A stretch of DNA of 22,778 bases from a virus (Duplodnaviria > Heunggongvirae > Uroviricota > Caudoviricetes). How positions within the stretch are numbered: the first letter of the stretch is position 1; each line of letters opens with the position of its first letter. The notes beneath the pieces are model-generated. The model was not told where the DNA came from and searched no databases. It saw only the letters and a program-made list of their open reading frames with translations. The stretch lies in the IMG/VR virus record IMGVR_UViG_3300032665_000003, one strand, 5' to 3'. This document shows, one piece after another, positions 1 to 20,873 of this stretch. The position numbers and the translations under genes are program-made.

Positions 1-144
1 TAACTTATCCGCTTTTTCCTTGAATCCGGGAGAGGCGTCAATCAATGCAGCCGGCTTTGTACCAGCAAGCATCAACTCAAGTTCCCGACCATGGTGAGGA
101 GCACGGTATGGTTCACTTGGAGAAAATATTTCAGCAATTCTCAT
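1..144 (-). CDS. Hypothetical protein, 3'-truncated by the window edge (MRIAEIFSPSEPYRAPHHGRELELMLAGTKPAAL...)
   Basis: Not in the ORF track. ATG at 144 follows the neck gene stop by 1 nt (TAA-C-ATG) and the frame is open to position 1. Confidence 0.75.
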   Translation of the reverse strand, partial: MRIAEIFSPSEPYRAPHHGRELELMLAGTKPAALIDASPGFKEKADKL

Positions 145-145
145 G

Positions 146-931
146 TTAACCTTGAATCCATGTCAGGGGTTGTGAATAATCCACATACTTCTTGAGTTCA
201 GTTAGCAGTCGTTCCATATCAGCCTTTGACTCTGCTTTCATAGCAGTACCGTTTAGGGTAGTTCCTCCACCTGGACCCACAACGGTGCTAAACTTTTCAC
301 GAGCTTCACCCATGATACCTTTAAGCACCGCAAGCATGAAGTCTCCGATCCAAACGCCGGCGCCCGGATCTTGTAAAAGAACAGCTTCTGGGCGTTGTAT
401 GTCAGCCCAAATAAGAATGCGTTCACCCGTACCTTTAAAATCACGAGTAATACGTAGGACCTTTGTTACCGGATCAAATGTGTATGTCAAGTATCCACCG
501 AACATACGTGCTGCTAGCTCAACGTATCCTGCATAGAAGTCATACGTCGCCATGCCGCCCGTATAGTTGTAATTCAACAAATACGTATTGAGAATTGCGC
601 TTGAGAATGGATCGAACGAAGATGACGATGGCCCTGTTTCTAAACCCACTGTTCTACGATACAAACAGCGCACGTTGATAAAGTCACTGGGTAGTGTATA
701 CGTGTCTACGTTTTTGATTACCGTCATCAGAGTATATGACTCTTGGGTCGCGTTTTGCGCACGTTGACGATAAGTTTTGATCGTATAGTTGTACGCAGCC
801 TCATAGTGCTGCGGATCAATTTCTAGGTCGATTATATCTCCGCCTAAACGCAGTCTGATATTTTCAAAGAACGCTTCTTTGATTTCTTCAAGATTGTAGT
901 TTGTCGGTGTTGATAGAATGCTTGCGGTCAT
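146..931 (-). CDS. Neck protein, T4 gp13-like
   Basis: 261 aa. The N-terminal IRLRLGGDIIDLEIDPQHYE pattern and the C-terminal IMGEAREKF...GGGTTLNG pattern match gp13-like neck proteins as I recall them. Late promoter and AGGA SD upstream. Confidence 0.75.
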   Translation of the reverse strand: MTASILSTPTNYNLEEIKEAFFENIRLRLGGDIIDLEIDPQHYEAAYNYTIKTYRQRAQNATQESYTLMTVIKNVDTYTLPSDFINVRCLYRRTVGLETGPSSSSFDPFSSAILNTYLLNYNYTGGMATYDFYAGYVELAARMFGGYLTYTFDPVTKVLRITRDFKGTGERILIWADIQRPEAVLLQDPGAGVWIGDFMLAVLKGIMGEAREKFSTVVGPGGGTTLNGTAMKAESKADMERLLTELKKYVDYSQPLTWIQG

Positions 932-3657: not shown

Positions 3658-3682
3658 CGTATTTCCTATTGAGTGAATGTTC

Positions 3683-3711
3683 AACTTAGCAGGGTACTGT
3701 AGACTTGTCAA
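3683..3711 (-). promoter_or_regulatory. sigma70-type early promoter TTGACA-N17-TAAGTT with extended -10 (TGc)
   Basis: Perfect -35 at 3706-3711, 17-bp spacer, -10 at 3683-3688. Heads the leftward early operon. Confidence 0.75.
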
Positions 3712-3732
3712 CATTTTTATCGTAGACCCGAC

Positions 3733-3740
3733 GATAAATA
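3733..3740 (+). promoter_or_regulatory. T4-type late promoter GATAAATA, 5 nt before ATG (leaderless)
   Basis: GATAAATA-aagat-ATG with no SD. Confidence 0.8.
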
Positions 3741-3745
3741 AAGAT

Positions 3746-5458
3746 ATGCCACGACTTAGTTTATACCGCCCGAATAAGCAGAACGATTATAGGTTCTTAG
3801 ACCGCACGATTTCAGAAATGTTAACGGTCGGCGGAACAGACCTGTATATCCATAAATATGCAGGAGTCACGAATCAAGGACCTTCTATAGATTACACGCA
3901 GCCGCAGTATGTAGATCCTGATCCGACTCAAATTCAGGATCTACTGTTTTTGGAAAACAGAGATAGAAAATACGACTCAAACATATATCGCCTGCGAGGG
4001 CACTATAATGTGCAGAATCTGGATTTTGATCTAAGTCAATTTGGACTTTTTCTGAATAACGACATCATTTTTATCACAGTTCACTATAACGATATGATTG
4101 ACATAATCGGTCGTAAACTGATGGTAGGAGATGTGTTGGAGTTGCCGCACTTGCTGGACTATAATCCTCTCAACGAAGCTATCCCTACTGCACTGAAACG
4201 TTTCATGCAAATAACAGATGCTAACTATGCAAGTGAAGGGTTTTCGCAAACATGGTTCCCGCATCTTTGGCGAATTAAGTGCGAGCCTCTAGTGAACTCT
4301 GAAGAATTTGCTGATATTCTTAACGCTCCAATTCAACAGGATAATTATTTAGGGGACTTTGATCCTACTAAAACCTATCCGCCGGGATATACCGTTACCT
4401 ACGGCGGTGTTGTTTATCAATCAACAACCGATGTTCCCGTCGGTACAACACCACCAAATGCAGCATACTGGGAAGTTGTGTCAGACGGCAGTTTGGCAGA
4501 TATTCTATCAACGTACAACAAAAATATTGCAATCAATGATGCCGCTTTAAAGGAAGCAGAGCGCTTGCTTCCAAAATCAGGACACGATACCAGCAATCTT
4601 TATATCGTACCTACTTATGGTACGTATGAGTCTAATGGAACGTTGTCCGATAAAATTAACCAACCTGCTCCGCCTATCAATCTTGCAGTAGACTTAAATA
4701 ATACGCCAGTAGCATATGGATCAGTCGTGATGATACGTGATCCTCGCTATAGAAATGCAGCGGCCGGAATTAAAGTTTCCAAAGAAGTAATGCAAAGTAT
4801 TTGGGACATGACCGCGGATATGGTCGGAATAGAAAAAATAGATTCGTTTGTTCAGGCACAATTGCAAGTGGTGGAGGTAGCTCCTCAAAGAACGGCGGGA
4901 GGATCAGGATCTGTCGAATCAGATAAATTACTCACTATTGAATCCTTAGGTATGGCGTATGGCCCGTACGGTACTGCTGATAACACATATGCTACAGCAG
5001 ACCAGGATCCTACTGCAACCGGATTTATCGGCGATATAACCATAAACATGGACTATCGTGCAGACTGTATTCCAGGTTATCAATATATCACTCGTTCTAC
5101 ACCTAGATCGTTCGGATATACGATGGGTTATTTGATAGGAGACGGCACTGCACCAAACGGTGAAGCGACTGGCGCCGGCATTTCGTTCCCGCAAAATCCA
5201 CAAGTCGGGGAATACTTCTTACGTATCGACTACTTACCGCAACTTCTATATCGTTGGGACGGAGTAATGTGGGTTAGAATCTCCGAAAATGTTCGAACAC
5301 AAACCGGATTCGAATCTAACGCAAACCAATCGTTGCTGTCAAGCTTTATTAATGATACCAATGAAATTTATGTAAATAATGAAGGGAAGCGTGTGCCAGA
5401 AGCGCAGCCTCTATCTTCAATTTTACAATTGACTCCCGACGTACCACCACCAGAATAA
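3746..5458 (+). CDS. Neck/head-completion protein, T4 gp14-like, with extra domains (570 aa)
   Basis: Start corrected to ATG 3746 (MPRLSLYRPNK). The N-terminal ~200 aa resembles gp14-like proteins, the gene lies directly before a gp15-like gene, and it has an internal CBM5/12-like segment (4358-4480). Confidence 0.7.
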   Translation: MPRLSLYRPNKQNDYRFLDRTISEMLTVGGTDLYIHKYAGVTNQGPSIDYTQPQYVDPDPTQIQDLLFLENRDRKYDSNIYRLRGHYNVQNLDFDLSQFGLFLNNDIIFITVHYNDMIDIIGRKLMVGDVLELPHLLDYNPLNEAIPTALKRFMQITDANYASEGFSQTWFPHLWRIKCEPLVNSEEFADILNAPIQQDNYLGDFDPTKTYPPGYTVTYGGVVYQSTTDVPVGTTPPNAAYWEVVSDGSLADILSTYNKNIAINDAALKEAERLLPKSGHDTSNLYIVPTYGTYESNGTLSDKINQPAPPINLAVDLNNTPVAYGSVVMIRDPRYRNAAAGIKVSKEVMQSIWDMTADMVGIEKIDSFVQAQLQVVEVAPQRTAGGSGSVESDKLLTIESLGMAYGPYGTADNTYATADQDPTATGFIGDITINMDYRADCIPGYQYITRSTPRSFGYTMGYLIGDGTAPNGEATGAGISFPQNPQVGEYFLRIDYLPQLLYRWDGVMWVRISENVRTQTGFESNANQSLLSSFINDTNEIYVNNEGKRVPEAQPLSSILQLTPDVPPPE

Positions 5459-5469
5459 TGAGATGTTAA

Positions 5470-6846
5470 GTGGCTGAATTCTTCTACGACAATCAAATCC
5501 GACGTTATCTAATCCAATTTGCTAAGATTTTTAGTTCTTGGAACGTCACTAAAGGAAAAGATCCTAACGGTAACAATATTATCGTTAGAATACCTGTCAT
5601 GTACGGGGATAGTAGCCGACAAGCTGCTACCATTATCGCCAACAACAGTGCGAGCAATCTACCTACGGCGCCGCTAATTACATATTATATCAGTGGATTA
5701 GAGTATAATCAAAAGTGGACTCAGGATCCCACGTTTGTTGATAGATTGAATGTGAGACAGCGTGCATATAATCAAGAAACCCAGACATATGACACTACGC
5801 AAGGACAAGCATTTACGATTGAGCGCTTGATGCCAGTGCCGTATACTCTAAGAATAACTGTTGACTTTTGGACTACCAACTATCAGCAGAAACTAGAAAT
5901 CATCGAACAGCTGGGGACACTATTCAATCCTGCTCTTGAAATTCAAAGCACTGATAACTTTATAGACTGGACTTCGTTGTCATCTGTGTTCCAAGACGGA
6001 CTTACATTCACTAGTCGTTCTATTCCTCAAGGTACAGGTAATCCTATCGACATCATGACTTGGAAGTTCTATATGCCTGTTTGGCTCTCGACTGCTGCTA
6101 AACTCAAGAAGATGGGAGTCATTCAAAAAATTATAGCATCTATCTATCAAGGTACTGCATTACAAGATGTTCAGGATGAAGACCTTCTATTGGGTACTAG
6201 ACAAAAAATTACGCCATATGGCTATAAGTTATTATTAATAGGCAATCAACTGCAACTTCTTCCGGCAGATGAGGCATTCTTTCCTAGTAATTCAGACCTT
6301 GAACAACCAATCAGTCCTAACACCGACTTGTATTGGTCTAGTTTACTAAATGTATACGGTACGGTAGTGCCGGGTATCTCGCAAATTTGGCTACAGAACC
6401 CATATATGGAAAATGACATTGTGGGGACTATCGTACCTAATCCAACGGATGACAGATTCTTGATCTATAATATTGATCCGGATACACTACCTCAAAACAC
6501 AATGCCACCAGTAGATAGTGTTATCAATCCATTACTAACTGGTCCTAATGCCGGGCTTCCGGGACCTACTACAAATAAAAGATATTTAATCGTTGAACAT
6601 ATCGGTCATACCGGTGACAGCACTATTGCTTGGGGAAATTTAGTAGCCAATGCAAATGACATCATCGAATATGATGCTGAAACGGGACAATGGTTTGTTG
6701 CATTTGATAGCCAAGCTTCTTCTGGTGTAGAATTTGTGACCAATCTAACCACAAACGTTCAGTATCGTTATGTAAACACTCAGGGAATGTGGATTAAATC
6801 TGTGGAGGGTTGGTATGATCAGGGTGACTATTCGATAGTCATTTAA
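5470..6846 (+). CDS. Tail sheath stabiliser / tail terminator, T4 gp15-like, with C-terminal extension
   Basis: GTG start. FFYDNQIRRYLIQFAKIFS, RIPVMYGD and IIEQLGTLFNP patterns are typical of gp15. Confidence 0.8.
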   Translation: MAEFFYDNQIRRYLIQFAKIFSSWNVTKGKDPNGNNIIVRIPVMYGDSSRQAATIIANNSASNLPTAPLITYYISGLEYNQKWTQDPTFVDRLNVRQRAYNQETQTYDTTQGQAFTIERLMPVPYTLRITVDFWTTNYQQKLEIIEQLGTLFNPALEIQSTDNFIDWTSLSSVFQDGLTFTSRSIPQGTGNPIDIMTWKFYMPVWLSTAAKLKKMGVIQKIIASIYQGTALQDVQDEDLLLGTRQKITPYGYKLLLIGNQLQLLPADEAFFPSNSDLEQPISPNTDLYWSSLLNVYGTVVPGISQIWLQNPYMENDIVGTIVPNPTDDRFLIYNIDPDTLPQNTMPPVDSVINPLLTGPNAGLPGPTTNKRYLIVEHIGHTGDSTIAWGNLVANANDIIEYDAETGQWFVAFDSQASSGVEFVTNLTTNVQYRYVNTQGMWIKSVEGWYDQGDYSIVI

Positions 6847-6865
6847 TATATCACCGATATATCAG

Positions 6866-6873
6866 ATTAAATA
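6866..6873 (+). promoter_or_regulatory. Late promoter ATTAAATA, 5 nt before ATG (leaderless)
   Basis: ATTAAATA-ccaat-ATG at 6879 with no SD. Confidence 0.65.
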
Positions 6874-6878
6874 CCAAT

Positions 6879-7286
6879 ATGACAATTATTCAAGCAGCAG
6901 GTGTGTTTTTCTACAGCACCTCTACTAATAGATACCTGTATCTATTGAGAGCCGACCAAAAAAATCCTACATGGAGTATACCGGGCGGAAAAATAGAAAA
7001 AACTGAAACCCTGTATGAAGGGATCCAACGAGAATGTACTGAAGAAATAGGAATGTTTAATCCATTATGGAAGCTCATTCCAATTCAAAAATTTGTGAAT
7101 AACTCATTCACATATAATACATTTTTTTGTGAAGTTACAGAAGAATTTATTCCGGTGTTGAACGACGAACACGTGGGATATGCTTGGGTTAAAGAAGGAC
7201 AGTACCCTAAACCATTACATCCTGGTTTATTTTCTACTGTCAATATTGATATCGTTAATGAAAAACTAAGATCGCTTGAAAAATAA
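6879..7286 (+). CDS. NUDIX hydrolase
   Basis: Intact Nudix box G-KIEKT-E-TLYEGIQ-RE-CT-EE-IG (GX5EX7REUXEEXG). Confidence 0.92.
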   Translation: MTIIQAAGVFFYSTSTNRYLYLLRADQKNPTWSIPGGKIEKTETLYEGIQRECTEEIGMFNPLWKLIPIQKFVNNSFTYNTFFCEVTEEFIPVLNDEHVGYAWVKEGQYPKPLHPGLFSTVNIDIVNEKLRSLEK

Positions 7287-8984: not shown

Positions 8985-9015
8985 AAAAAAATAGGAGATG
9001 TTATAGTCTACCTAC
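8985..9015 (-). terminator. Possible intrinsic terminator overlapping the tail fibre stop codon
   Basis: Minus strand gtagg-t-aga-(8-nt loop)-tct-cctat followed by a U-tract. Confidence 0.4.
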
Positions 9016-11100
9016 TGCTACTTCGATCACACCGAAGAGACCGTCGAAGTCTTCTAGAGACTTACCTATAACTGTGCCCATAGACGGAGAAGATGACGCC
9101 ATTGCGCGTCCATATCCCGCACTTACTAGCATGTCACCTTTTCTAATAGAACCCGTAACTTTACATGGCACACGTCCTTGTAGTGCAATTGGAACCGCAG
9201 GTGCTGCACATATTTCATGCATGGCAAATGCAGGATTAGTAGAAACTACTCCCGCGACCCTACTTGTTTCGGGGGAGGCTACAGTTACTTCTGCTGTTCC
9301 CCCAAACTGTAATACGGTGCCGGGTTCATATGTGCTAATATCAGCGGTATAGTATTCTGCTAAGTCAGCGTAAGTTGATTGTAGTTTTGATCCGCTAGAC
9401 AGGGACCAATTACCTGTGATTGTTCCGGCAGTTGTGTTTGCTCCAGTAGTAAGCGCGGTTGCTCCTACCGTTCCGGTATACGTAGGCAAATATGAGGCGA
9501 CGTTTGAGTTGCTATATGCGCCATCAAAACTAATTGCTACGCCATTGGCATAATAATAATTATCAGTCTTAATTCCGCCCGTTGTTACGTTTGCAGTAAC
9601 GGAGACTGCGGACAGCGTACCAACTGATGTGATGTTTGGTTGTGCATTAGTTGTCACTGTACCTGCTGTAGTTGCAGATGTAGCAGAACCACTAAGTGTT
9701 CCTACAAAACCAGTAGCAGTGATGTATCCATTAGCTAGGTTAGCGAAGAAGTTGGCATTTGATGCGTGTGTATAATTGCCATTCGCAGTAGACGAGATGA
9801 ATGGAATATAATAAGTACCAGTTGATGCTGAATTATTAAGGACTGCGGCTGCATTCGTAGCACTAGTTGCAGAAGAAACTGTACCAGAAACATTGCCGCC
9901 TGCCACTGCGTTTGCTGTCGTAGCATATGTGGCTAGACCTACCGCGCCTGAAACATTGGCGCCTGCCACTGCGTTTGCTGTAGTTGCGTATGCGACTGCA
10001 CCCGATACGTTTGCACCTTGAATGTTAGATAGGTTGTTGCCGGCACCATAATGGTTTCCAATTATATTTGCACCACTTATGTTTCCAGTAACTGTTAATG
10101 ATGTTAGTGTACCAACTGATGTGATATTTGGTTGTGCGTTAGTTGTTACCGTACCTGCGGTACCTGCGGTTGCAGAATTTAAGTTTGCTACTTGAGTAGT
10201 CGATGTAACTGTAAATGGTGCAGTTCCGGTAGTTACATTTGACACAAATCTAGTAGATGTAACAATACCGTTGGAGTTGAGATTACCTACGTTTGCGTCA
10301 CCATTAAGAGATAAAACCTTACCTGTGTAATCATAAACTAAGTTTGCATCTCCAGTTATCACGCTGCTGGCATTATATTGAATTGAAGTGTTTGAACCGC
10401 CAGCTGCTGCGGTTCCGCTACCCGAAGAAATAATAGCAGTTGCAATAGCGTTGGGAGAATTGGTGTAAGTTAATCCAGTTCCATTAACTCCAGTAGTTAA
10501 ACCTGCATCAGTATACAAGGATACGTTACCAGACGAAGGGAAATCACTCGCAAGCTTAACATAAAATGTGTTACCATTAACATTGGCATTAGCAACACCG
10601 TTAACACCACTAATAGTAACCTGCAAGTCATTTGTGTATGGAGTAGTATTTGCTACTGTCATGACAACAGGAGTATCATTGCTTAGAGCCACGATGTTGG
10701 TATAAAGTGAACCTTTTGGTGTCCAAGAAAGATTACCTAAACCATCAGTGCTTAACACATAACCAATAGCTCCGCCGGTAATTTTTACATTTGATATACT
10801 ACCAAAATTTAAAGTGCCACCAGAAGACCCACCTGTGTTTACCCAACTACTTCCATTGTACGCTAGTACCTGTCCAGCAGTTGGAGAAGTAATTAAAAGG
10901 TTCCCAACCACGCCATCAATTTGACTGAAGGCTATTTTCGAATAGCCAGTAAGAACTTCAATGTTTTCGTTAGGAGTAGTTTTACCTACAAACAAACGTT
11001 TATTATCTGTGGCCCAACCAAATTCACCTTCATCTAGTTGCGGTAGATCAACTAGGTTACCTGTACGAACTTGAAGTTTTGAAATTTGTAAAATCGACAT
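9001..11100 (-). CDS. Tail fibre/spike-like virion protein with Mtd-N-like N-terminus and C-terminal intramolecular-chaperone (Peptidase G2/S74-like) domain
   Basis: Start ATG 11100 (MSILQISKLQVRTG...LPQLDEGEFGWATD). C-terminal ADLAEYY...RVAGVVSTNPA...ALQGRVPCKV...KGDMLVS...IGKSLE. Internal TAGTVTTNAQPNITSVGTL repeats. Confidence 0.78.
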   Translation of the reverse strand: MSILQISKLQVRTGNLVDLPQLDEGEFGWATDNKRLFVGKTTPNENIEVLTGYSKIAFSQIDGVVGNLLITSPTAGQVLAYNGSSWVNTGGSSGGTLNFGSISNVKITGGAIGYVLSTDGLGNLSWTPKGSLYTNIVALSNDTPVVMTVANTTPYTNDLQVTISGVNGVANANVNGNTFYVKLASDFPSSGNVSLYTDAGLTTGVNGTGLTYTNSPNAIATAIISSGSGTAAAGGSNTSIQYNASSVITGDANLVYDYTGKVLSLNGDANVGNLNSNGIVTSTRFVSNVTTGTAPFTVTSTTQVANLNSATAGTAGTVTTNAQPNITSVGTLTSLTVTGNISGANIIGNHYGAGNNLSNIQGANVSGAVAYATTANAVAGANVSGAVGLATYATTANAVAGGNVSGTVSSATSATNAAAVLNNSASTGTYYIPFISSTANGNYTHASNANFFANLANGYITATGFVGTLSGSATSATTAGTVTTNAQPNITSVGTLSAVSVTANVTTGGIKTDNYYYANGVAISFDGAYSNSNVASYLPTYTGTVGATALTTGANTTAGTITGNWSLSSGSKLQSTYADLAEYYTADISTYEPGTVLQFGGTAEVTVASPETSRVAGVVSTNPAFAMHEICAAPAVPIALQGRVPCKVTGSIRKGDMLVSAGYGRAMASSSPSMGTVIGKSLEDFDGLFGVIEVAVGRL
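9617..10158. repeat. Dispersed coding repeats in the tail fibre: 50-bp pair (9617-9666, 10109-10158) and ~30-bp pair (from 9898 and 9961)
   Basis: The 50-bp copies differ only at synonymous third positions. They encode AGTVTTNAQPNITSVGT; the shorter pair encodes YATTANAVAG. Confidence 0.8.
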
Positions 11101-11140
11101 AAGAGTATTTTCACCCAACTGGTATATACTCTTATTTAGT
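11101..11140 (-). promoter_or_regulatory. Late promoter ACTAAATA (11133-11140) overlapping a hairpin that ends at the tail fibre ATG
   Basis: aagagtat (11101-11108) and atactctt (11126-11133) are perfect complements. Inner acc/ggt pair overlaps a GGGTG SD-like sequence. Confidence 0.7.
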
Positions 11141-11160: not shown

Positions 11161-11847
11161 CTAAAGGAATTTAGTGTAGTACTGTTCTACTCGTTTCCAC
11201 CACAAGTCAGCATAACGATCAAACTCATTTCCTTCAATTATGAATTCTTGATAGATCACGTCAGCAGAACACATAAAAATAACACCCTTTCGAATTTTGG
11301 TTCCCCAAACTTCGTTATGAGCATTAGCATATGCAGTGGTTTGCACGAAATAGTCGTCAATCCATTCGCGCTTTTTAGGTTTATTTGTTTGTTTGTGGTC
11401 CATAACCGCTTCATCACCTGCATGAACTCCGACCAAATCTGTCGTGCCTGCATAGATTTCAGGAAAATACAAACCTACTTCGGTTCCCCAATATTCAGTG
11501 CAATTGACTAGTCCCTGAGAAATAATGCTCTGTGCCATAGCATGACTTTGTGTGCTGTATGGATTAGTACCTGGATCACCAGTAGCATCTAACTTAATGT
11601 AGTTTTCGATCCACTTGTGCATACGAGTACCTCTACCCGCTGCCTCAGTGGTGATTTCCTGAGCTTTGGCATGACCTACACGATTTCGCCAATTTTGAAG
11701 TGCTTTTTTCGAATCTTCTGATTTTGTAGCATCGAGTATAGTCGTTACAGAAGGTAGTTTGTTACCATCAGGAGTTACGTATCTTCTTGATCCGTCAACA
11801 TTTACTCTTTGTAGGTCTGTATAAGGGAATTTATTAGTTATAGCCAT
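11161..11847 (-). CDS. PD-(D/E)XK exonuclease (Cas4/MGME1-like phage exonuclease)
   Basis: LPSVTTIL, RGTRMH, E...YAGTTDL...MDHKQ...WIDDYFVQTTAYA motifs. Confidence 0.88.
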   Translation of the reverse strand: MAITNKFPYTDLQRVNVDGSRRYVTPDGNKLPSVTTILDATKSEDSKKALQNWRNRVGHAKAQEITTEAAGRGTRMHKWIENYIKLDATGDPGTNPYSTQSHAMAQSIISQGLVNCTEYWGTEVGLYFPEIYAGTTDLVGVHAGDEAVMDHKQTNKPKKREWIDDYFVQTTAYANAHNEVWGTKIRKGVIFMCSADVIYQEFIIEGNEFDRYADLWWKRVEQYYTKFL

Positions 11848-13943: not shown

Positions 13944-13976
13944 AAAAAGCCCGGAAATAATATTATTTCCGGGCTT
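13944..13976 (-). terminator. Intrinsic terminator: 30-bp perfect palindrome plus U-tract
   Basis: aagcccggaaataat|attatttccgggctt (13947-13976), followed by ttt-gttg on the minus strand (five U counting the end of the arm). Lies just after the 127-aa gene. Confidence 0.88.
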
Positions 13977-14001
13977 CGTTAGTTAATAATAACTTTTTAT
14001 A

Positions 14002-14385
14002 TTAGAGGTCTGAACCAGCAACGAAAGTTGCGCCGGTTGCAGTAGTTGTACCAGTTACGCCAGCTGCGGTTAGAGCAGTGTCGATTGCAGAAGCAGTCCA
14101 AGCTGATGCTGGGTAAAGAGCAGCAGCGAAGGTGTCGTTTGAGCCACCAGTTGTGAACTGATAGATGTGTACTGTTGCAAGTTGCTCAAGAGTCTGAACA
14201 ATGGTTAGAACTTGGGCGCCAGTCAAGTGGCCAGTAGCAGTAGAAGTGAAGTAGTCAAGCTTTGGGCCCTGTGGTTGTACAGCTACGCCTGAAGTTACAG
14301 CGTTAAGAGCGCCAGTTGTATATGCTGGTGAGTCAATGTGTAGTACTGGTTGAAAATCACCATGTGTCTTTGTAAATTGTGCCAT
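14002..14385 (-). CDS. Small Ala/Thr-rich protein (127 aa); likely abundant virion component
   Basis: Own late promoter, TAAGGA SD and strong terminator. Codons favour TTC/GAC/TAC/GCT/ACT. Confidence 0.75.
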   Translation of the reverse strand: MAQFTKTHGDFQPVLHIDSPAYTTGALNAVTSGVAVQPQGPKLDYFTSTATGHLTGAQVLTIVQTLEQLATVHIYQFTTGGSNDTFAAALYPASAWTASAIDTALTAAGVTGTTTATGATFVAGSDL

Positions 14386-14466: not shown

Positions 14467-15612
14467 TTATCGGCCTTGAAGATTTTGACGAGAAAATCCC
14501 ATACGATCAACAAACTTAAGACCTTGTGCGACGAAACCCTCATGTGTCTGTGATCCATCCTGCAAATATCCCTTTACGGGACTATGTGTAGCTGATGCGT
14601 CTAATTGTTTCACTACATTCATTTTAAGATTGTACAATGATATCCAAACTTTGAAGGCACCTACTAGGCCTTCTTTGTTTACTTCTAGATGTTCTAGAAT
14701 TTTTTGCTTCATGGCGTCGGACATAGGTCTAGCTTTTACATACTCTAAAAAGTCTTTTATTAAATTAGTAAGACTACCTGACACAATTTTCTTGTTGATG
14801 TAAACTGTAAAAAGTTGATTGAATGTATTTCTAGCCTGAGGGGCAGTATTCATCAAATCTTTGATTGATGGTCCATACTGCTGTAGTTCTCTTTCTGCTA
14901 CGTTCTTGAGTCTAGCTGGCATTTTTAATTTAGGTGTAATCGGCATCTTACTAGGTACTATAGCTACATTAGAAGCATTTTGTAGATTACCCAATGATCC
15001 GTTCAATGAAACAGCCTCATCAGTTGACGCCGACTGAGCCGGTATAAACTGGTGGACAGCAATACCAGCGGCTTTTCCTGCTAGTAGTTTACCAACGTCG
15101 CTGTTTACATCTACTGTATATGCAATTCCATTAGGATTGGCTCTAAACTTGAATACCCCATTTTCATCCTTAAGTGGACTGCTAAATAAAAGATCACCCC
15201 AGTAGTAACCATTTCCACCGCGATCATCTTTTTCCAAACCAGACCAAATAGTACCAATCAGATGGTATAGATTTCCTCTGTCTACTCCTCTGGCCCGATC
15301 ATATTCCATAAATTGTTCAGGACTGTATACTGCTCTACCAGTGCCGTCCTTTTTATTAAACATGTGCTTATCCATGATGGAGAATTTTCCATCAGATCCT
15401 CGACCGAATATAAGCGCAGGATACCCGTCCCATTTGATAGTTATAGAGTTTGGTTGATTTACAGTTGCTTCTATTGCAGATATTGCGCGTTTTGCACCTT
15501 CCTCATCCCCTAAAAAAACTAAATCTTCAGGATGATCCAAATGACCTTTGCCTTCAACAACTACGGTGTTGATGGATTCCAGTTTATCTATTAAGGCCCT
15601 GAGGTCACTCAT
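14467..15612 (-). CDS. DUF6267-like protein; putative ATP-dependent ligase-fold nucleotidyltransferase
   Basis: HLDHPEDL and TIKWDGYPALIFG resemble DUF6267 as I recall it. KxDG, GDLLF, EGFV and KFV occur in ligase motif order. Confidence 0.7.
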   Translation of the reverse strand: MSDLRALIDKLESINTVVVEGKGHLDHPEDLVFLGDEEGAKRAISAIEATVNQPNSITIKWDGYPALIFGRGSDGKFSIMDKHMFNKKDGTGRAVYSPEQFMEYDRARGVDRGNLYHLIGTIWSGLEKDDRGGNGYYWGDLLFSSPLKDENGVFKFRANPNGIAYTVDVNSDVGKLLAGKAAGIAVHQFIPAQSASTDEAVSLNGSLGNLQNASNVAIVPSKMPITPKLKMPARLKNVAERELQQYGPSIKDLMNTAPQARNTFNQLFTVYINKKIVSGSLTNLIKDFLEYVKARPMSDAMKQKILEHLEVNKEGLVGAFKVWISLYNLKMNVVKQLDASATHSPVKGYLQDGSQTHEGFVAQGLKFVDRMGFSRQNLQGR

Positions 15613-16946
15613 TGTGCTGTTTGATTAATGTCTGCTATAATTTTTTTATATTCAGCTGGGTTTTTGTTTTTTAGTGAGTCCAACGAGGCCTTTATTTGTT
15701 CCGAAGAAGTAGAGAGTGACCCTGATGTAGATGGGGTATTTTTTATTAATTCAGGTTTAGCTGCGGCTGTAAGTTTGAACGCTAATAATGCCAATTTTTG
15801 GAGTGCTTCATTGCCCTTGTCTTTGCTATACGTAGCATCTACTTGGCTAAGTAAATCACTGATTAGCTTTTGTTGGTTATCATTAATGTTTACTCCGTGC
15901 ATATAGTTATAAAACCAGCTATTCAATATCTGAGAAGGTTTTCCTTTAGGGGCAGCGGGTTGTGGTGGCGCCGTCTTTGGTGCGGCGGCCTGTGGCGCTA
16001 CCGTCTTTGGTGCGGCGGCCTGTGGCGCTACCGTCTTTGGTGCGGCGGCCGATGACGCAGGCTTTGTGCCGAATCTAGGAGTATTAACCGCTTTAGGCGC
16101 AGTTGGTTTTGGTGCATTGCCGGTAGTTCTAGCCAAAGTAGGATCATATTCTGATATGATACTTTCAAGTACGTAATTTAATCTATCATACGGTGAGACT
16201 ACGACGGAAACTGGCTTGCAAGTGCTTATAAAGACTCCAGATCCTTTAACACTTTCAGTCAACCTAATACGAAGACCTAGATTAGCCCAAACCAGTCCGT
16301 GTTCCTTAAGCATTTTACTTATAGCGCGATATACACTCTGGGTCAAGAACCTTTCACCTGCCTTGCTGCTTGCTGTCCATGCTGGTGCTAGCTTACTGAC
16401 ATCGTATCCAGCATTTGCAAATTTTAAAATCTTATTAGCAGCAAAGGCGCCACTTTCCTTATCACCCTTAGCTAATTTTTGCATATCTCCTTGCAAGCTT
16501 GCAACCATATTAGCCGGAAGAGGCTTTGCATTTGGTGTAGGTTGAATACTACGTACTTGTCCTTTAAGGTTTTCATAAGGGTCTGTGGATGCTGTATTTT
16601 GTGTAGTTGCAGTTGCAGCAGTCGGGGCAGAAGATGCTGCTGTTGGACCCGCAGACCCTGTCGGGGCAGAAGATGCTGCTGTTGGACCCGCAGACCCTGT
16701 CGGGGCAGCTGGTGCTGCTGATACCCTAGTGGCAGGAGCAGCTACATTAGCCAAAGCCGTTGATGCACTCTTAAGAAAGCTATTGATGAAGTTTTTCTGG
16801 GTTAAATTCTGTTGTGCCCGTTTCATCATTGGCTCAGCGTACTTACCGAGTGTATTCGTAATAGTAGATGCTCCGTAATCTCCAAATACGTTGCTCAATA
16901 GACCCTCATCTACTTGCTTAGGTGAATTAAACTCATTTATCTTCAT
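15609..16946 (-). CDS. Ala/Pro/Thr-rich late protein (445 aa) with two tandem-repeat linkers; possible internal head/ejection protein
   Basis: Strong TAAGGAGG SD and ATGA overlap with the downstream gene. Confidence 0.75.
   Translation of the reverse strand: MKINEFNSPKQVDEGLLSNVFGDYGASTITNTLGKYAEPMMKRAQQNLTQKNFINSFLKSASTALANVAAPATRVSAAPAAPTGSAGPTAASSAPTGSAGPTAASSAPTAATATTQNTASTDPYENLKGQVRSIQPTPNAKPLPANMVASLQGDMQKLAKGDKESGAFAANKILKFANAGYDVSKLAPAWTASSKAGERFLTQSVYRAISKMLKEHGLVWANLGLRIRLTESVKGSGVFISTCKPVSVVVSPYDRLNYVLESIISEYDPTLARTTGNAPKPTAPKAVNTPRFGTKPASSAAAPKTVAPQAAAPKTVAPQAAAPKTAPPQPAAPKGKPSQILNSWFYNYMHGVNINDNQQKLISDLLSQVDATYSKDKGNEALQKLALLAFKLTAAAKPELIKNTPSTSGSLSTSSEQIKASLDSLKNKNPAEYKKIIADINQTAQ
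15961..16050. repeat. 30-bp tandem repeat x3 (AAAPKTVAPQ)
   Basis: ccgtctttggtgcggcggcctgtggcgcta is perfectly periodic over 15971-16050. Confidence 0.95.
16621..16708. repeat. 39-bp perfect tandem repeat x2.3 (APTGSAGPTAASS)
   Basis: gtcggggcagaagatgctgctgttggacccgcagaccct at 16621 and 16660, partial copy at 16699. Confidence 0.95.
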
Positions 16947-17181
16947 GATTCCTCCTTATGGACTTCGAAAATCTTGCTTGATCTTTACCTTTGATAGCGC
17001 TAAGCAATTTCTTTTCAAGAAATTCTGCTTTTTCAGGAGAATAATTACGATTCATCAATTCAATTAGATTGATAGCACTGGTAATAATATTGGAAGCCCG
17101 AGACTCAATAATATGATTGACATCACGGTTTTCACCATATGCTTGTAATTCCTCAAGAAGGCTTTTTGTTTTCTTTTGCAT
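16933..17181 (-). CDS. Hypothetical late protein (82 aa, helical)
   Basis: First gene after the late promoter at 17204-17211. AGGA SD. Confidence 0.78.
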   Translation of the reverse strand: MQKKTKSLLEELQAYGENRDVNHIIESRASNIITSAINLIELMNRNYSPEKAEFLEKKLLSAIKGKDQARFSKSIRRNHEDK

Positions 17182-17203
17182 TGGGTAAAGATCCTACTGA
17201 CAG

Positions 17204-17211
17204 TATTTATG
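17204..17211 (-). promoter_or_regulatory. Late promoter CATAAATA overlapping the helicase stop codon
   Basis: TCA-TAA-ATA at the end of the helicase gene. Confidence 0.7.
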
Positions 17212-18616
17212 ATTTCTTGAGAGAATTTAACAACGATTTTAATTGTGCAGATTTGACATCTGCAACTACGTGCTTTGGTGCTGCTTCTACAGTTGCATGT
17301 ACCGCTGCGTCTACTGAGCCAACTTGGCTAGTTGTTTTTATTTTACTGATAATGTCATTAGCAGACGGTTGTGGTTTGTAATCATTTTCTGGATCTTCGT
17401 CGGTTATTCTCATGGTTTCGATGTTATATTCTAAGTCGATCTTTTGACCCACTCCAGTGGAACTACGAGACTTCATACACTGAATTTGATACTTTCCGCG
17501 TTCACGCATTGACCTGGAAGTGAAAATACCAAACACATAGTCTGCTGTGTTGATCTTTGAAATACCACCAGCAATGTGTGAGTGATCGAACTCAATTTCT
17601 TCAACTGCCGAACGATTCAACTGCGATGCCGTAACCATCAGAACACCTAATTCCTTAGCTAGATTACGTAGTTCTTCTGAAACATACTTGTCCTTGATAA
17701 ACTGATCATTAGGATTTACTTTTACGGAGACTGGCATGACTAGATCGAGATAATCGATCATCACAAAATCTACTTTGATGCCAGTCTGAATCTGAACTTC
17801 TTTTAGATAGCTTCGAATATCATTTACGTTAGACTGTGCCGGAAGACCCTTAACACGATACTTACCAGACTTTCTAGCAACCATCTTGACTTTTAGCTCA
17901 GCAGTATCCATATCCTTTCGAATATCTTTTGTACTCATGCTAGTCAACATGGCATCAGTACGTAGCGAAGTCAATTCTTCTGATAGTTCTAGCGTTATGT
18001 ATACTCCGCTTAACCCTTGCTGTAGCCAGTTTAGAGCCAGATTCATCATCACCAATGATTTACCCGAGCCCGAACCACCTGCAAAGATGTTCAACTCTCC
18101 TCGACTCATGCCACCATACATGACACGATCAAGCTGTGGCCAACCTGTGCTTACTTGACCACCTGCATTGAAGTATTTGTTTAGTCGCTCTTTTGGATCA
18201 GCAAAGTAGTCTGTACCCATATCTCGTTGCAATGAAATCTGAATAGCATCTTTTATTAATTTTTCAATTGGATTAAAGTCGCCCTTCTCTAGCATATCCG
18301 CTGCTTTAAGAATGGCTCGCTCAAGCTCTTGTCTCTTAGTGAATGATTCGAATTCTTCTAGAAACCAATCATAGTGTCCATCAGTAAGCTCTGGTATAGG
18401 TTCTATGCTAACACCAGTCGTAGCCTTGATCTGAATAGGATCCGGCATAACATTATATTTGGTAGCGTGTTCTACCAAGAATTCTGCGGATGCTCTCAGC
18501 GTCCTATCAAAATTATTTGGATTCATGATGTTTATGACGCGAGTATATAACTCGGCGTTGGTTACCATCATACGTAGAAAGAGCGTCTGTACGTCTATGT
18601 TATATTCTTTTGTCAA
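17207..18616 (-). CDS. Replicative DNA helicase, DnaB/T4 gp41 family
   Basis: TTG start. Walker A GGSGSGKS, Walker B VMIDYLDL, TASQLNR and KSRSS motifs. Confidence 0.95.
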   Translation of the reverse strand: MTKEYNIDVQTLFLRMMVTNAELYTRVINIMNPNNFDRTLRASAEFLVEHATKYNVMPDPIQIKATTGVSIEPIPELTDGHYDWFLEEFESFTKRQELERAILKAADMLEKGDFNPIEKLIKDAIQISLQRDMGTDYFADPKERLNKYFNAGGQVSTGWPQLDRVMYGGMSRGELNIFAGGSGSGKSLVMMNLALNWLQQGLSGVYITLELSEELTSLRTDAMLTSMSTKDIRKDMDTAELKVKMVARKSGKYRVKGLPAQSNVNDIRSYLKEVQIQTGIKVDFVMIDYLDLVMPVSVKVNPNDQFIKDKYVSEELRNLAKELGVLMVTASQLNRSAVEEIEFDHSHIAGGISKINTADYVFGIFTSRSMRERGKYQIQCMKSRSSTGVGQKIDLEYNIETMRITDEDPENDYKPQPSANDIISKIKTTSQVGSVDAAVHATVEAAPKHVVADVKSAQLKSLLNSLKKS

Positions 18617-19577
18617 GCGTTCTCCGTTGCATCTTAAGCTTGATTTTGCTAGTAGTTGCGCTTTGCAATATACTTAGCAGAGTAGGAAGTCTTCCATACT
18701 TTCTAACAGCATCATTGGTGTCTTTTATTCCTTCGGCCCAATTTGGTATACTCACCTGAAAACCCAAATCTAGCGCTCGGTCACATATAGCTAGCCCTGT
18801 CTTATCCAAATCAGGAACTACAATAATACGTTTATTAAGGCGACGAAGAACCTCTGCTTGTTCGTCGCTTATAGTATCATGAGTTAGTGCGCAGCCATTG
18901 ATACTGAGTGCGTCAAATATGCCCTCAACAACGATACATACTTCCCATTCTGGTTTTTGTAAGTCGAAGCCAAATACGAATCCGGGTTGTTGCTCCTTAA
19001 TATATTTGGGAAATCTGTCATCTAGATATCTGCTTATATGACCGACAACTTTATTATTGAAAGTATATGGAATGATAATTCTATTAGCATTTCTACCTTC
19101 ATCTTTAGGAGTGATTAAAAATGGATAATCGTTTGGTTGAAATCCTCTTGTGGAAAGATAGTCTATAAAAGGTTTATGCTCAGGACAGGCAGAATCAATC
19201 ATTATAGCATTTTGTGGTAGCGGTATCTCATTAAATCTTACTTTCTTGAGATTTTTCTTTATCGTATATAGGTCTACTAAATCTCGATGCTGAAGGCTCT
19301 CAAAATTCCATTTAGTAATCTCACTGTCACCGACACCGCACCAAAGCAATAATTGTCGTAGATTCTTACTAATTTGTTTACCTAAGGTAAATCCGCACTT
19401 GTAATCGCAGTTAAAGCAATGAAACGACCAGTTAACGTCTGTTATAAACTTGATTCCGCCGCGCATACGTTTATCTGCTTTATGACCGCGATGATGACAG
19501 CACGGTGCATTAAAGCTAATCCAGCCACTACCGGTAGTCTTCTTTTTTCCCGGAATTACTGACAGAATATTAAACAT
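18600..19577 (-). CDS. DNA primase, DnaG/T4 gp61-like
   Basis: N-terminal Zn-binding NAPCC...HCFNC, TOPRIM VVEGIFDALS and VPDLDKTG, KDTND. Adjacent to the helicase. Confidence 0.92.
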   Translation of the reverse strand: MFNILSVIPGKKKTTGSGWISFNAPCCHHRGHKADKRMRGGIKFITDVNWSFHCFNCDYKCGFTLGKQISKNLRQLLLWCGVGDSEITKWNFESLQHRDLVDLYTIKKNLKKVRFNEIPLPQNAIMIDSACPEHKPFIDYLSTRGFQPNDYPFLITPKDEGRNANRIIIPYTFNNKVVGHISRYLDDRFPKYIKEQQPGFVFGFDLQKPEWEVCIVVEGIFDALSINGCALTHDTISDEQAEVLRRLNKRIIVVPDLDKTGLAICDRALDLGFQVSIPNWAEGIKDTNDAVRKYGRLPTLLSILQSATTSKIKLKMQRRTLDKRI

Positions 19578-19583
19578 AAAGGT

Positions 19584-19611
19584 ATTGTAACACTTACTGA
19601 GTAAAACTCAA
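19584..19611 (-). promoter_or_regulatory. sigma70-type promoter TTGAGT-N16-TACAAT with extended -10 (TGT), 6 nt before ATG (leaderless)
   Basis: -10 at 19584-19589, -35 at 19606-19611, no SD. A 9-bp bulged hairpin (19594-19615) overlaps the -35. Confidence 0.65.
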
Positions 19612-19624
19612 GTAATACGGTAAC

Positions 19625-20404
19625 TTAGCGAGATAGAATATTGGTGACCGCGCCGGCGTTGCTAGAAAATACCATACGAACAAACGGATGGAAACCTTTT
19701 ATAGTGTATCCAAAAGTATCAGTAACATCCTCGTATGTATTGTTAAGAATAGGATACCAATCAGCGTCAGGTTGGGTAGATCCTTCAATTGTCACATCAC
19801 CATTGTATTGGTCATAGCTAGCCTGTATAGTGAGTATAGGATTGTCTTCTGTGTTTATGACACTACTATAGTATGCTCTTGAATTCGCAGGAACAGACCA
19901 TTCAGCATTATTGTTTAGATTAGGAAAGGCTTGACCAGACGGAATAGTAACATTGGATGAAGGGACAAATGCAGGAAGCACAGAATTGACAATATTCATA
20001 TCGCCCCTTGCGCCTGCATTTTGATCCACGAAGACCGGATATCCGAAGTCTCCGATAGGAATCTCTAGAGAATAGTGACATTTCTGCGCAGGAATGTCCT
20101 CGATGTCAGCCGCATTTAAATTCAAAGACGCAATTCCAGTAAGAGGAAGATCCAAATCTAAGGCTTTGTTAATTAATACAGCATTACCGTCATAGCTGAT
20201 AACTCTGCAGGTGATTGATTTACCTGTAATGTCGACGGGCTTTTGTTCCTGATTGAGAAACTGAAATTGGATTTTATTGTCCACACCTCTGTGTAGCGTT
20301 AGTGGTTTGGCGTACTGGGGCATGTATATTCTCGCTGAGTTACCTACTAGTAGGACAACAATCTGGCGTTGGACATACACGAATACTTGAGTACTATAAG
20401 CCAT
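19625..20404 (-). CDS. Putative virion structural protein (259 aa; BppU-N/Ig-like N-terminal domain)
   Basis: LTLHRGVDNKIQFQFLNQEQKPVDITG pattern, beta-rich, late promoter. Confidence 0.6.
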   Translation of the reverse strand: MAYSTQVFVYVQRQIVVLLVGNSARIYMPQYAKPLTLHRGVDNKIQFQFLNQEQKPVDITGKSITCRVISYDGNAVLINKALDLDLPLTGIASLNLNAADIEDIPAQKCHYSLEIPIGDFGYPVFVDQNAGARGDMNIVNSVLPAFVPSSNVTIPSGQAFPNLNNNAEWSVPANSRAYYSSVINTEDNPILTIQASYDQYNGDVTIEGSTQPDADWYPILNNTYEDVTDTFGYTIKGFHPFVRMVFSSNAGAVTNILSR

Positions 20405-20430
20405 GGTTACTTGTTATCCCTATCATCATA

Positions 20431-20438
20431 TATTTAGT
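20431..20438 (-). promoter_or_regulatory. Late promoter ACTAAATA
   Basis: 26 nt upstream of ATG 20404, with a GGGA SD. Confidence 0.65.
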
Positions 20439-20475
20439 CTTAGAAATATGAAAATATTATCTTTGGGCAAAATAG

Positions 20476-20483
20476 TGTAAATA
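20476..20483 (+). promoter_or_regulatory. Late promoter TGTAAATA, divergent from 20431-20438
   Basis: 9 nt upstream of ATG 20493, no SD. Confidence 0.55.
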
Positions 20484-20492
20484 TAGTATAGT

Positions 20493-20873
20493 ATGAGCAG
20501 CAACGAATTTTTCAAGAAATTAAGTGAAAATCACCCGTTTATTTCGGTGTGTTCCTATGCGCAACAAGATTATGTGGGCATCATTCAAAACAGGGATGAT
20601 ATGGTCACTACGCTCTATGACTATGGTGCAATAGTTCAGTCTGAGTTGCGAGCTAAGTTTTTAGAATTAGGTGATATATGGTGGTGGGAATCGAATAGAT
20701 CGATCCCCATCAACATATTTCTCAAAGAAGAATGGGCTATCTTTAGACCATACATTCGAACATTCAATAACAAGAGTTTGATCGTTCTTCACGGACCCGT
20801 AGTTAGCATTACTGAATTTACTAAAAAGCGGGCTAAAAGAAAGAGCATCACACTGGTTAAGCGTTTGCCCTAG
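20493..20873 (+). CDS. Hypothetical late protein (126 aa, WWWESNRSIPINIFLK motif)
   Basis: Only plus-strand gene in the right half. Basic C-terminus. Confidence 0.8.
   Translation: MSSNEFFKKLSENHPFISVCSYAQQDYVGIIQNRDDMVTTLYDYGAIVQSELRAKFLELGDIWWWESNRSIPINIFLKEEWAIFRPYIRTFNNKSLIVLHGPVVSITEFTKKRAKRKSITLVKRLP

Follow-up and report, generated by a model that had tools for sequence, protein, structure and literature searches.

A gene on the minus strand of a 22,778-nucleotide stretch of DNA from a jumbo phage of the Caudoviricetes (IMG/VR record IMGVR_UViG_3300032665_000003), hereafter the window, encodes a protein of the family DUF6267, which its conserved residues and predicted structure mark as an unrecognised family of the ligase superfamily in phages. 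As an observation the reading frame with its motif strings is confirmed; its interpretation, that of a divergent covalent nucleotidyltransferase (polynucleotide ligase) which would seal polynucleotide ends, with RNA slightly preferred, is partly supported and is put forward tentatively, as a reading that falls somewhat short of probable. The window is part of a viral contig (G000) of 175.7 kb that is estimated to be 49% complete, complete relatives measuring 333-518 kb. The kind of enzyme, one of the ligase superfamily, is known, while the family, its architecture and its set of partners are undescribed in the literature searched.

14467..15612, minus strand: coding sequence of the DUF6267 (PF19782) predicted ligase-fold protein (P0001), 381 aa, reading frame open without stops

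An earlier note on this DNA had called this open reading frame (ORF) and listed ligase-like motif strings within it. The ORF is real: the translation gives 381 residues free of stops, the codon of K60 lies at 15433-15435 as given there, and all of the quoted strings are found with their order kept (TIKWDG at residues 58-63, YYWGDLLF at 136-143, AVHQF at 185-189, HEGFV at 357-361 and LKFVDR at 365-370). The gene model is considered sound because an orthologue with 70% identity, from a fully syntenic region of the complete 360-kb relative G001, aligns end to end with residues 1 to 381. A Pfam search assigned the protein to PF19782 with an E value of 1.4e-36, residues 24-379 lying on positions 3-373 of the 376 in the profile, and this near-full-length match scored 127.1 bits, the gathering cut-off being 27. 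The PHROGs assignment is phrog_455, function unknown. DUF6267 is mentioned nowhere in the literature searched, and every one of the 1297 matches in a 90%-clustered database is either unnamed or 'hypothetical'; when clustered at 50% identity, 861 clusters match at E <=1e-3. Isolated phages carrying the family are chiefly T4-like cyanophages (Kyanoviridae), along with Methylophilales phage Melnitz, at 23-28% identity. DUF6267 is an unstudied family that is very widespread in T4-like and jumbo phages.

Conservation was scored on an alignment of 48 stand-alone DUF6267 members with 24-58% identity to the query. Residues H27, K60, D62, G63, G70, D140, Y165, K330, E358, G359 and K366 are invariant throughout, and E29, D30, G75, D81, K82, G135, G139, F156, P160, G174, H187, V368, R370 and F373 are conserved in at least 90% of members. 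Since they stay invariant among homologues this divergent, the motif strings are not there by chance. Judged from the alignment, the pattern is that expected of motifs I (KxDG), III (acidic), IV (EGxV) and V (K) of covalent nucleotidyltransferases, and it is distributed over the gene as follows.

15523..15534, minus strand: family-specific motif H27-P-E29-D30, start of helix 28-52; H27 in 48/48, E29 and D30 each in 47/48
15424..15441, minus strand: motif I, T-I-K60-W-D62-G63; K60, D62 and G63 in 48/48, K60 being the predicted nucleotidyl-accepting lysine
15184..15207, minus strand: motif III-like strand YYWGDLLF; G139 in 45/48, D140 in 48/48, strand 135-143 in the model
14590..14916, minus strand: five-helix insert, residues 233-341, basic, carrying the invariant K330
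14503..14544, minus strand: beta-hairpin of motif IV (E358-G359-F-V) and motif V (L-K366-F-V-D-R370); E358, G359 and K366 in 48/48, V368 in 44/48, R370 in 47/48

The KxDG of motif I, with its invariant lysine, is as in the superfamily, and the acidic residue of motif III and the E/D-G-x-V of motif IV lie on adjacent strands (135-143 and 359-362). The placing of motif IIIa is less certain. AVHQF had been proposed for it, with H187 in 47/48 and an aromatic residue at position 189 in 35/48, and Y165 (48/48) and F156 (46/48) are equally good candidates for the stacking aromatic. The helical insert that the earlier note had described ahead of motif IV is present, at 109 residues rather than about 150. 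It has a net charge of +6 and an isoelectric point of 9.7, the family mean being +3.0 for the insert versus -0.2 for the core. Either R370 or K330, the latter lying in the insert, may stand in for the second lysine of motif V. The H-P-E-D motif sits about 30 residues ahead of motif I and could, by its position, help to orient the leaving group of the nucleotide donor.

An AlphaFold2 model built with the 48-sequence alignment (predicted local distance difference test, pLDDT, 94; predicted template modelling score, pTM, 0.89) shows the fold of a nucleotidyltransferase domain, and a ligase-type fold is on this basis very probable. The model opens with a poorly defined N-terminal helix (4-18) and a linker (15-21) with pLDDT <50, followed by the long helix 28-52, a beta-rich core (58-220) broken by helices 98-130, the five-helix insert and a closing hairpin (346-367) bearing motifs IV and V. 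An OB-fold (oligonucleotide/oligosaccharide-binding fold) with motif VI was not found after motif V, the model stopping 15 residues past K366 with one short helix; the earlier note had been right in seeing none. The top 41 rows of the Foldseek list are all ligases (NgrRnl 7.2, T4 Rnl1 6.5), and in BFVD and AFDB the matches outside DUF6267 itself are mostly proteins named RNA ligase. A structure search of AFDB Swiss-Prot gave no convincing match, and a language-model comparison gave a weak lead to the Rnl2/REL1 family (0.76). Structural alignments with three ligases, which set in shortly ahead of motif I, covered the ranges below, in the numbering of a truncated model in which index 39 is K60.

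REL1: model 37..201 (truncated numbering), chain 84..244
LigIV subdomain: model 34..202 (truncated numbering), chain 268..406
Chlorella virus ligase: model 41..201 (truncated numbering), chain 28..138

If the catalytic lysines are, as we take them to be, K87 in REL1, K273 in LigIV and K27 in the Chlorella virus ligase, then K60 would fall 0-2 residues from each, as read from the aligned ranges only. At their C-terminal ends the full-model alignments set K366 against what are presumably the lysines of motif V in T7 ligase, T4 Rnl2 and NgrRnl. The assignment to the covalent (lysine) nucleotidyltransferase superfamily made in the earlier note therefore agrees, in model and alignment, with the fold and with the residues of motifs I, III, IV and V. 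Two of the checks by which that note could have failed were run: the model and its structural comparison came out ligase-like, and K60, D62 and E358 proved invariant in all 48 homologues.

By analogy with the superfamily, K60 would attack the alpha-phosphate of ATP to form an enzyme-AMP, and judging from the alignment and the model such a K60-nucleotide adduct is likely. D62, D140 and E358 would hold the metal and the ribose, and K366, perhaps together with R370 or K330, the phosphate. Next, a nucleic-acid end bearing a 5'-phosphate would receive the AMP, and attack by a 3'-OH would close the break. The basic helical insert may do the work of the OB domain, or other domain for binding nucleic acid, that the protein lacks. 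That DUF6267 acts on polynucleotide ends is, on balance, to be expected; RNA as the substrate is a tentative choice and DNA a more doubtful one. A role in sealing RNA strands or nicks, like that of T4 Rnl2 or Naegleria Rnl5, is slightly preferred over a DNA role because the nearest structures are nick-sealing RNA ligases, an OB domain is absent, and the protein would be a third ligase in phages that also have a DNA ligase and Rnl1.

The last of these points comes from the other ligases encoded by the same phages. The contig itself encodes a canonical RNA ligase of T4 Rnl1 type, 401 aa long (PF09511, E 1.6e-33, plus T4_Rnl1_C), which matches T4 Rnl1 structures in PDB (2c5u, E 1.5e-26). About 280 bp downstream of it on the same strand, at a locus outside the window (L001, G000:C1:85518-88961), is a gene for a 173-aa P-loop kinase (AAA_33), and by their sequences the two look like the standard RNA-repair pair. 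Each of the complete relatives G001, G002 and G003 carries DUF6267 together with an ATP-dependent DNA ligase of PF01068 (about 450 aa) and Rnl1; on the half-complete contig itself no PF01068 or PF01653 ligase was found. Because both ligases coexist with it in these genomes, the roles of replicative ligase and of standard tRNA-repair ligase in these jumbo phages would not fall to DUF6267, which is rather read as a third, specialised sealing enzyme. T4, with gp30, Rnl1 and Rnl2, provides a precedent for three ligases in one phage.

Many relatives suggest that DUF6267 works together with other nucleotidyltransferases. A survey of the 150 best cluster representatives showed roughly half of them to be longer proteins, with additional segments that sort into three recurring modules, A, B and C. 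Module A is a nucleotidyltransferase of the HIGH type with PGGFQPFHLGH and SASEIRK in its consensus; 8 of 67 members match Pfam CTP_transf_like, and it weakly resembles phosphopantetheine and nicotinamide mononucleotide adenylyltransferases (PPAT/NMNAT, E ~1e-3). The proteins most similar to the query (48-59% identity) carry it as a C-terminal fusion. Module B, of about 220 aa and mostly N-terminal, carries the Pol-beta-superfamily signature G-S-x9-D-L-D and occurs in >30 representative clusters. Module C is a second type of HIGH nucleotidyltransferase. Some proteins combine A, B and DUF6267, and G002 has the three as an operon of separate genes in the order B-DUF6267-A. Cyanophages have module C, annotated as 'cytitidyltransferase', in a gene next to that of DUF6267, and in S-CAM9 and S-SM1 the two genes overlap. 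A PolX identity was considered for module B, of which 1 of 20 members gave a weak Pfam DNA_pol_B_palm match (E 0.0018), the others weakly matching palms of poly(A) polymerases or AbiEii; a search of PDB with the module B profile returned no match. Since just one in 20 gave even a weak PolX-palm match, the module is labelled only as belonging to the Pol-beta superfamily. A ligase-like, a Pol-beta-like and a HIGH-type component define a module of three nucleotidyltransferases.

Several results weigh against reading the protein as a polynucleotide ligase with such partners. Pfam returned DUF6267 alone, without a sequence-level tie to any characterised ligase family, and PDB searches with the protein sequence and with a 48-sequence profile returned nothing relevant. 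Foldseek against PDB, run with full and truncated models, gave no match at E <=1e-3, with ligases heading the weak rows. When DUF6267 was compared by hhalign with a 62-sequence alignment of the phage's own Rnl1 family only motif IV (EGFV) aligned, P 0.037, a comparison without overall significance, from which we conclude that DUF6267 is a distinct branch and not a divergent Rnl1. The motif III residue is Asp (D140), where most ligases have Glu; motif V has the single lysine K366, with Val or Ile at the +2 position in 48/48 and not K-x-K; and the protein has no OB or other known nucleic-acid-binding domain. K60 as the predicted catalytic lysine is drawn from alignment ranges and conservation, not from coordinates. 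As for the partners, hidden Markov models (HMMs) of the three modules found no match among all ORFs of the 175.7-kb contig. The Pol-beta-type partner is lacking in this lineage (the contig and the complete G001), and the HIGH-type partner was found neither on this half-genome contig nor beside the gene in G001.

The surroundings of the gene bear on the alternatives. All of the following features are on the minus strand of the window.

15609..20404, minus strand: upstream genes of the same packed run, order kept in G001, G003 and G004
19625-20404, minus strand: 259-aa protein of unknown type
18600-19577, minus strand: primase
17207-18616, minus strand: DnaB-like helicase
16933-17181, minus strand: 82-aa protein, phrog_11854, labelled virion structural protein, between the helicase and the 445-aa gene
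15609-16946, minus strand: 445-aa Ala/Pro-rich protein, its stop overlapping the DUF6267 start (ATGA)
14002-14385, minus strand: 127-aa protein, directly downstream of DUF6267
13977-13946, minus strand: intrinsic terminator-like hairpin, 14-bp stem and T run, after the 127-aa gene and one gene past DUF6267
11161-11847, minus strand: exonuclease, beyond four small genes past the terminator

From the primase through DUF6267, which is fifth when the primase is counted as the first, the genes overlap or lie <=25 nt apart. Sigma-70-like promoter matches cluster at 20425-20515, in a divergent intergenic region, and the very strong hairpin at 13946-13977 is probably where the transcription unit ends. 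DUF6267 appears to be expressed from the primase-helicase transcription unit. G003 and G004, whose DUF6267 is no more than 26-28% identical, retain the order primase, helicase, 82-aa gene and on to DUF6267. Phage Melnitz and the cyanophages P-TIM40, S-CAM9 and S-SM1 have the gene a few genes downstream of the gp41 helicase, in the gp43/UvsX/gp41 block, so that a helicase-to-DUF6267 order recurs even where the protein is only 23-28% identical, T4-like cyanophages included. The T4 late promoter TATAAATA was absent from the whole window. The earlier note had placed the gene in a late cluster apart from replication genes; this premise is wrong, since the gene is packed on the same strand with primase and helicase in a replication run of conserved order and no T4 late promoter is present. 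BLASTP of the flanking 445-aa and 127-aa proteins against the fused DUF6267 relatives showed no similarity, and these neighbours are therefore not split-off partner domains.

This replication context favours the strongest alternative to an RNA-sealing enzyme, namely a DNA ligase for replication or fill-and-seal repair, which would replace gp30 in cyanophages and serve in jumbo phages as a second, repair-dedicated ligase with the Pol-beta-type partner. It deserves serious weight, though we hold it less likely than the reading above. The gene sits in a replication and recombination block with primase, helicase and exonuclease here and with gp43, UvsX and gp41 in cyanophages; in the structure comparison DNA ligases come within 1-1.5 Z units of the best RNA ligases; and the frequent fusion to module B recalls a PolX-ligase fusion of a giant virus with demonstrated base-excision-repair activity (PMC5537341). 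However, the PolX identity of the module is unconfirmed and the module itself was not found in this lineage. Complete jumbo relatives already own a canonical PF01068 ligase. The OB domain is missing from the model, whereas to our knowledge characterised ATP-dependent DNA ligases carry one.

The cyanophage orthologue also bears on this alternative. Gene 189 of S-SM1 (SSM1_189; locus L103:3935-6059) matches the family HMM with an E value of 5.6e-30, the match spanning both ends of the protein (HLEDLVF...KWDG and QHEGFV...VKLVDR). In the supplementary ORF table of Sullivan et al. 2010 SSM1_189 is T4-GC71, a cluster present in 16/16 cyanomyoviruses and 0/10 other T4-like phages and located, in most cyanomyoviruses, directly upstream of T4-GC190, a 'cytitidyltransferase' (PMC3037559). 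Both the gp30 DNA ligase and RnlA show the opposite distribution, being found in 10/10 non-cyanophage T4-likes and 0/16 cyanophages (PMC3037559). A core gene of all cyanomyoviruses, none of which has gp30, would suit a DNA ligase; yet cyanophages also lack RnlA, and the complementary pattern therefore suits an RNA ligase equally well. Nothing usable on the expression timing of the cyanophage orthologue was found in published transcriptomes and their supplements. Either way, DUF6267 is a concrete candidate for how cyanomyoviruses do without gp30 and RnlA, and one still annotated 'hypothetical' in its cyanophage form though core in 16/16 of those compared in 2010. A bolder version, to which we give little credence, is that DUF6267 is the 'missing' ligase of T4-like cyanophages and pairs, as one unit of two enzymes, with the NMNAT/PPAT-like adenylyltransferase that always lies next to it, perhaps as an NAD+-using enzyme whose partner re-adenylylates the released nicotinamide mononucleotide (NMN), the unit being preloaded into the capsid in some phages. 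If true, strand joining would be independent of host NAD+/ATP status or of NAD+-depleting defences.

Rather unlikely, too, is a nucleotidylating effector that joins nothing: one that transfers AMP or another nucleotide to a host protein, to the end of a nucleic acid (in a capping-like manner) or to a small molecule, maybe with NAD+ from the NMNAT/PPAT-like partner and maybe as an anti-defence protein delivered from the capsid. The weak PPAT/NMNAT resemblance of the HIGH module would accord with it, and the single-lysine motif V and N-terminal H-P-E-D are unlike typical ATP-dependent ligases. The fusions of the family include ART-PolyVal with Sigma70_r4, ADPrib_exo_Tox (an exoenzyme-type ADP-ribosyltransferase, ART), NT5C, ParB_N and Cu/Zn superoxide dismutase, and 4 of the 67 fused representatives carry Acb1, the phosphodiesterase directed against cyclic-oligonucleotide-based anti-phage signalling systems (anti-CBASS). 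This repertoire resembles that of the injected phage 'polyvalent proteins' (PMC5512222). Examples of polyvalent-like fusions are P0125, P0101 and ESM Atlas clusters. No ligase-fold enzyme is known to us to act on a protein, which counts against such an effector, as does the packing of the gene, in the same orientation, with replication genes.

An effector delivered from the capsid would have to be loaded into the head, and the N-terminus of the protein offers a candidate signal by which it may enter.

15553..15612, minus strand: candidate capsid-targeting or propeptide leader, residues 1-20, a predicted amphipathic helix and disordered linker

The T4 capsid targeting sequence (CTS) is MKTYQEFIAE (PMC8442874), in which residues 4 and 7 serve targeting and residues 8 and 10 cleavage (PMC9026906). 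Many stand-alone members of DUF6267 start in a similar way (MKTIRELIETLE, MKIIELLTE, MRAIEFLTE), and 14 of 55 stand-alone representatives meet the strict CTS pattern. In the clade of the query the leader is about 20 aa long and ends in [LIV]-x-E just before (A/G)KGHLDHPED. The leader of the window's own protein (MSDLRALIDKLE...VVVE), which ends V-V-E20 right before GKGH within the ill-defined linker, is a weaker match, departing from the CTS consensus. A prohead protease of the T4 gp21 type is encoded by the complete relatives G001, G002 and G003 and was not found on the half-complete contig of the window. The hydrophobic-x-E motif is short; it also precedes the DUF6267 domain within fusions and may for that reason be structural. 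T4-GC190, the partner cytidylyltransferase, was detected in purified S-SM1 virions; T4-GC71 itself had no proteomic evidence in the virion proteomes of S-SM1, S-PM2 and Syn9, which speaks against virion association (PMC3037559). Head loading is plausible because of the CTS-like leaders, the protease of the relatives and the ART fusions, with the partner in S-SM1 virions also counting in its favour; we nevertheless hold packaging of DUF6267 proteins in virions, which the earlier note had supposed, to be doubtful. The closest likeness is to the T4 internal proteins and Alt, which are capsid-targeted, processed by gp21 and injected: many family members have a start close to the CTS of T4, such as MKTIRELIE... 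beside MKTYQEFIAE. The difference is that packaging of DUF6267 is suggested by sequence, with the window's own leader the weaker match.

That the protein is a structural or scaffolding component derived from a ligase and devoid of catalysis is very improbable: neighbouring genes do match PHROGs labelled virion structural protein and the fold match is modest, but K60, D62, D140, E358 and K366 are invariant across very divergent homologues, which is the mark of an active site under selection.

For the preferred reading, a ligase that would seal polynucleotide ends, the closest known systems include the nick-sealing RNA ligases of Rnl5 type (Naegleria gruberi NgrRnl and Deinococcus DraRnl; PDB 5cot/5cou). 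In NgrRnl an OB-like domain stands at the N-terminus and motif V reads K-x-K, whereas DUF6267 has the H-P-E-D helix, Asp in motif III, only one lysine in motif V and the 109-aa helical insert before motif IV, and shares no detectable sequence homology with NgrRnl. The family of T4 Rnl2 and Trypanosoma REL1 (PF09414) resembles DUF6267 in structure, yet no PF09414 match was obtained in Pfam at E up to 1, and the accessory domains differ, the C-terminal domain of T4 Rnl2 being absent from DUF6267. In T4 Rnl1 (RnlA, PF09511) the helical domain follows motif V, while the helical module of DUF6267 precedes motif IV, and no PF09511 match was found. The layout 'polymerase + ligase' of the fused relatives is that of PgVPolX from Phaeocystis globosa virus, a PolX joined to an NAD+-dependent DNA ligase (PMC5537341), and of Pol X plus ligase in African swine fever virus; the ligase part of PgVPolX is, however, a LigA homologue, the PolX identity of the DUF6267 partner is unconfirmed, and the protein of the window stands alone. 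With a helical module before motif IV, an H-P-E-D element, one motif V lysine and no OB domain, DUF6267 presents a new layout for a well-studied class of enzymes.

Some further features of the window were observed. The 82-aa gene is an oddly stable small gene inside the replication block, held in place across G003 and G004. The 445-aa protein, which is translationally coupled to DUF6267, contains long Ala/Pro-rich low-complexity repeats (AAPKTVAPQ-like) and matched no Pfam or PHROG family. Its N-terminus, MKINEF..., resembles a capsid-targeting leader, and only the N-terminus is conserved in G001. At 9001-11118 on the minus strand, between the exonuclease gene and unknowns, is a 705-aa ORF with a TTG start whose C-terminal 100 aa match tail-fibre PHROGs; as it adjoins the exonuclease gene, structural and replication genes are interleaved there. 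On the opposite, plus strand, 3677-7286 encodes a virion structural protein (593 aa), a tail sheath (458 aa, GTG start) and a NUDIX hydrolase (135 aa). The tail sheath and NUDIX genes have the same order in the 360-kb relative G001, at 77% identity.

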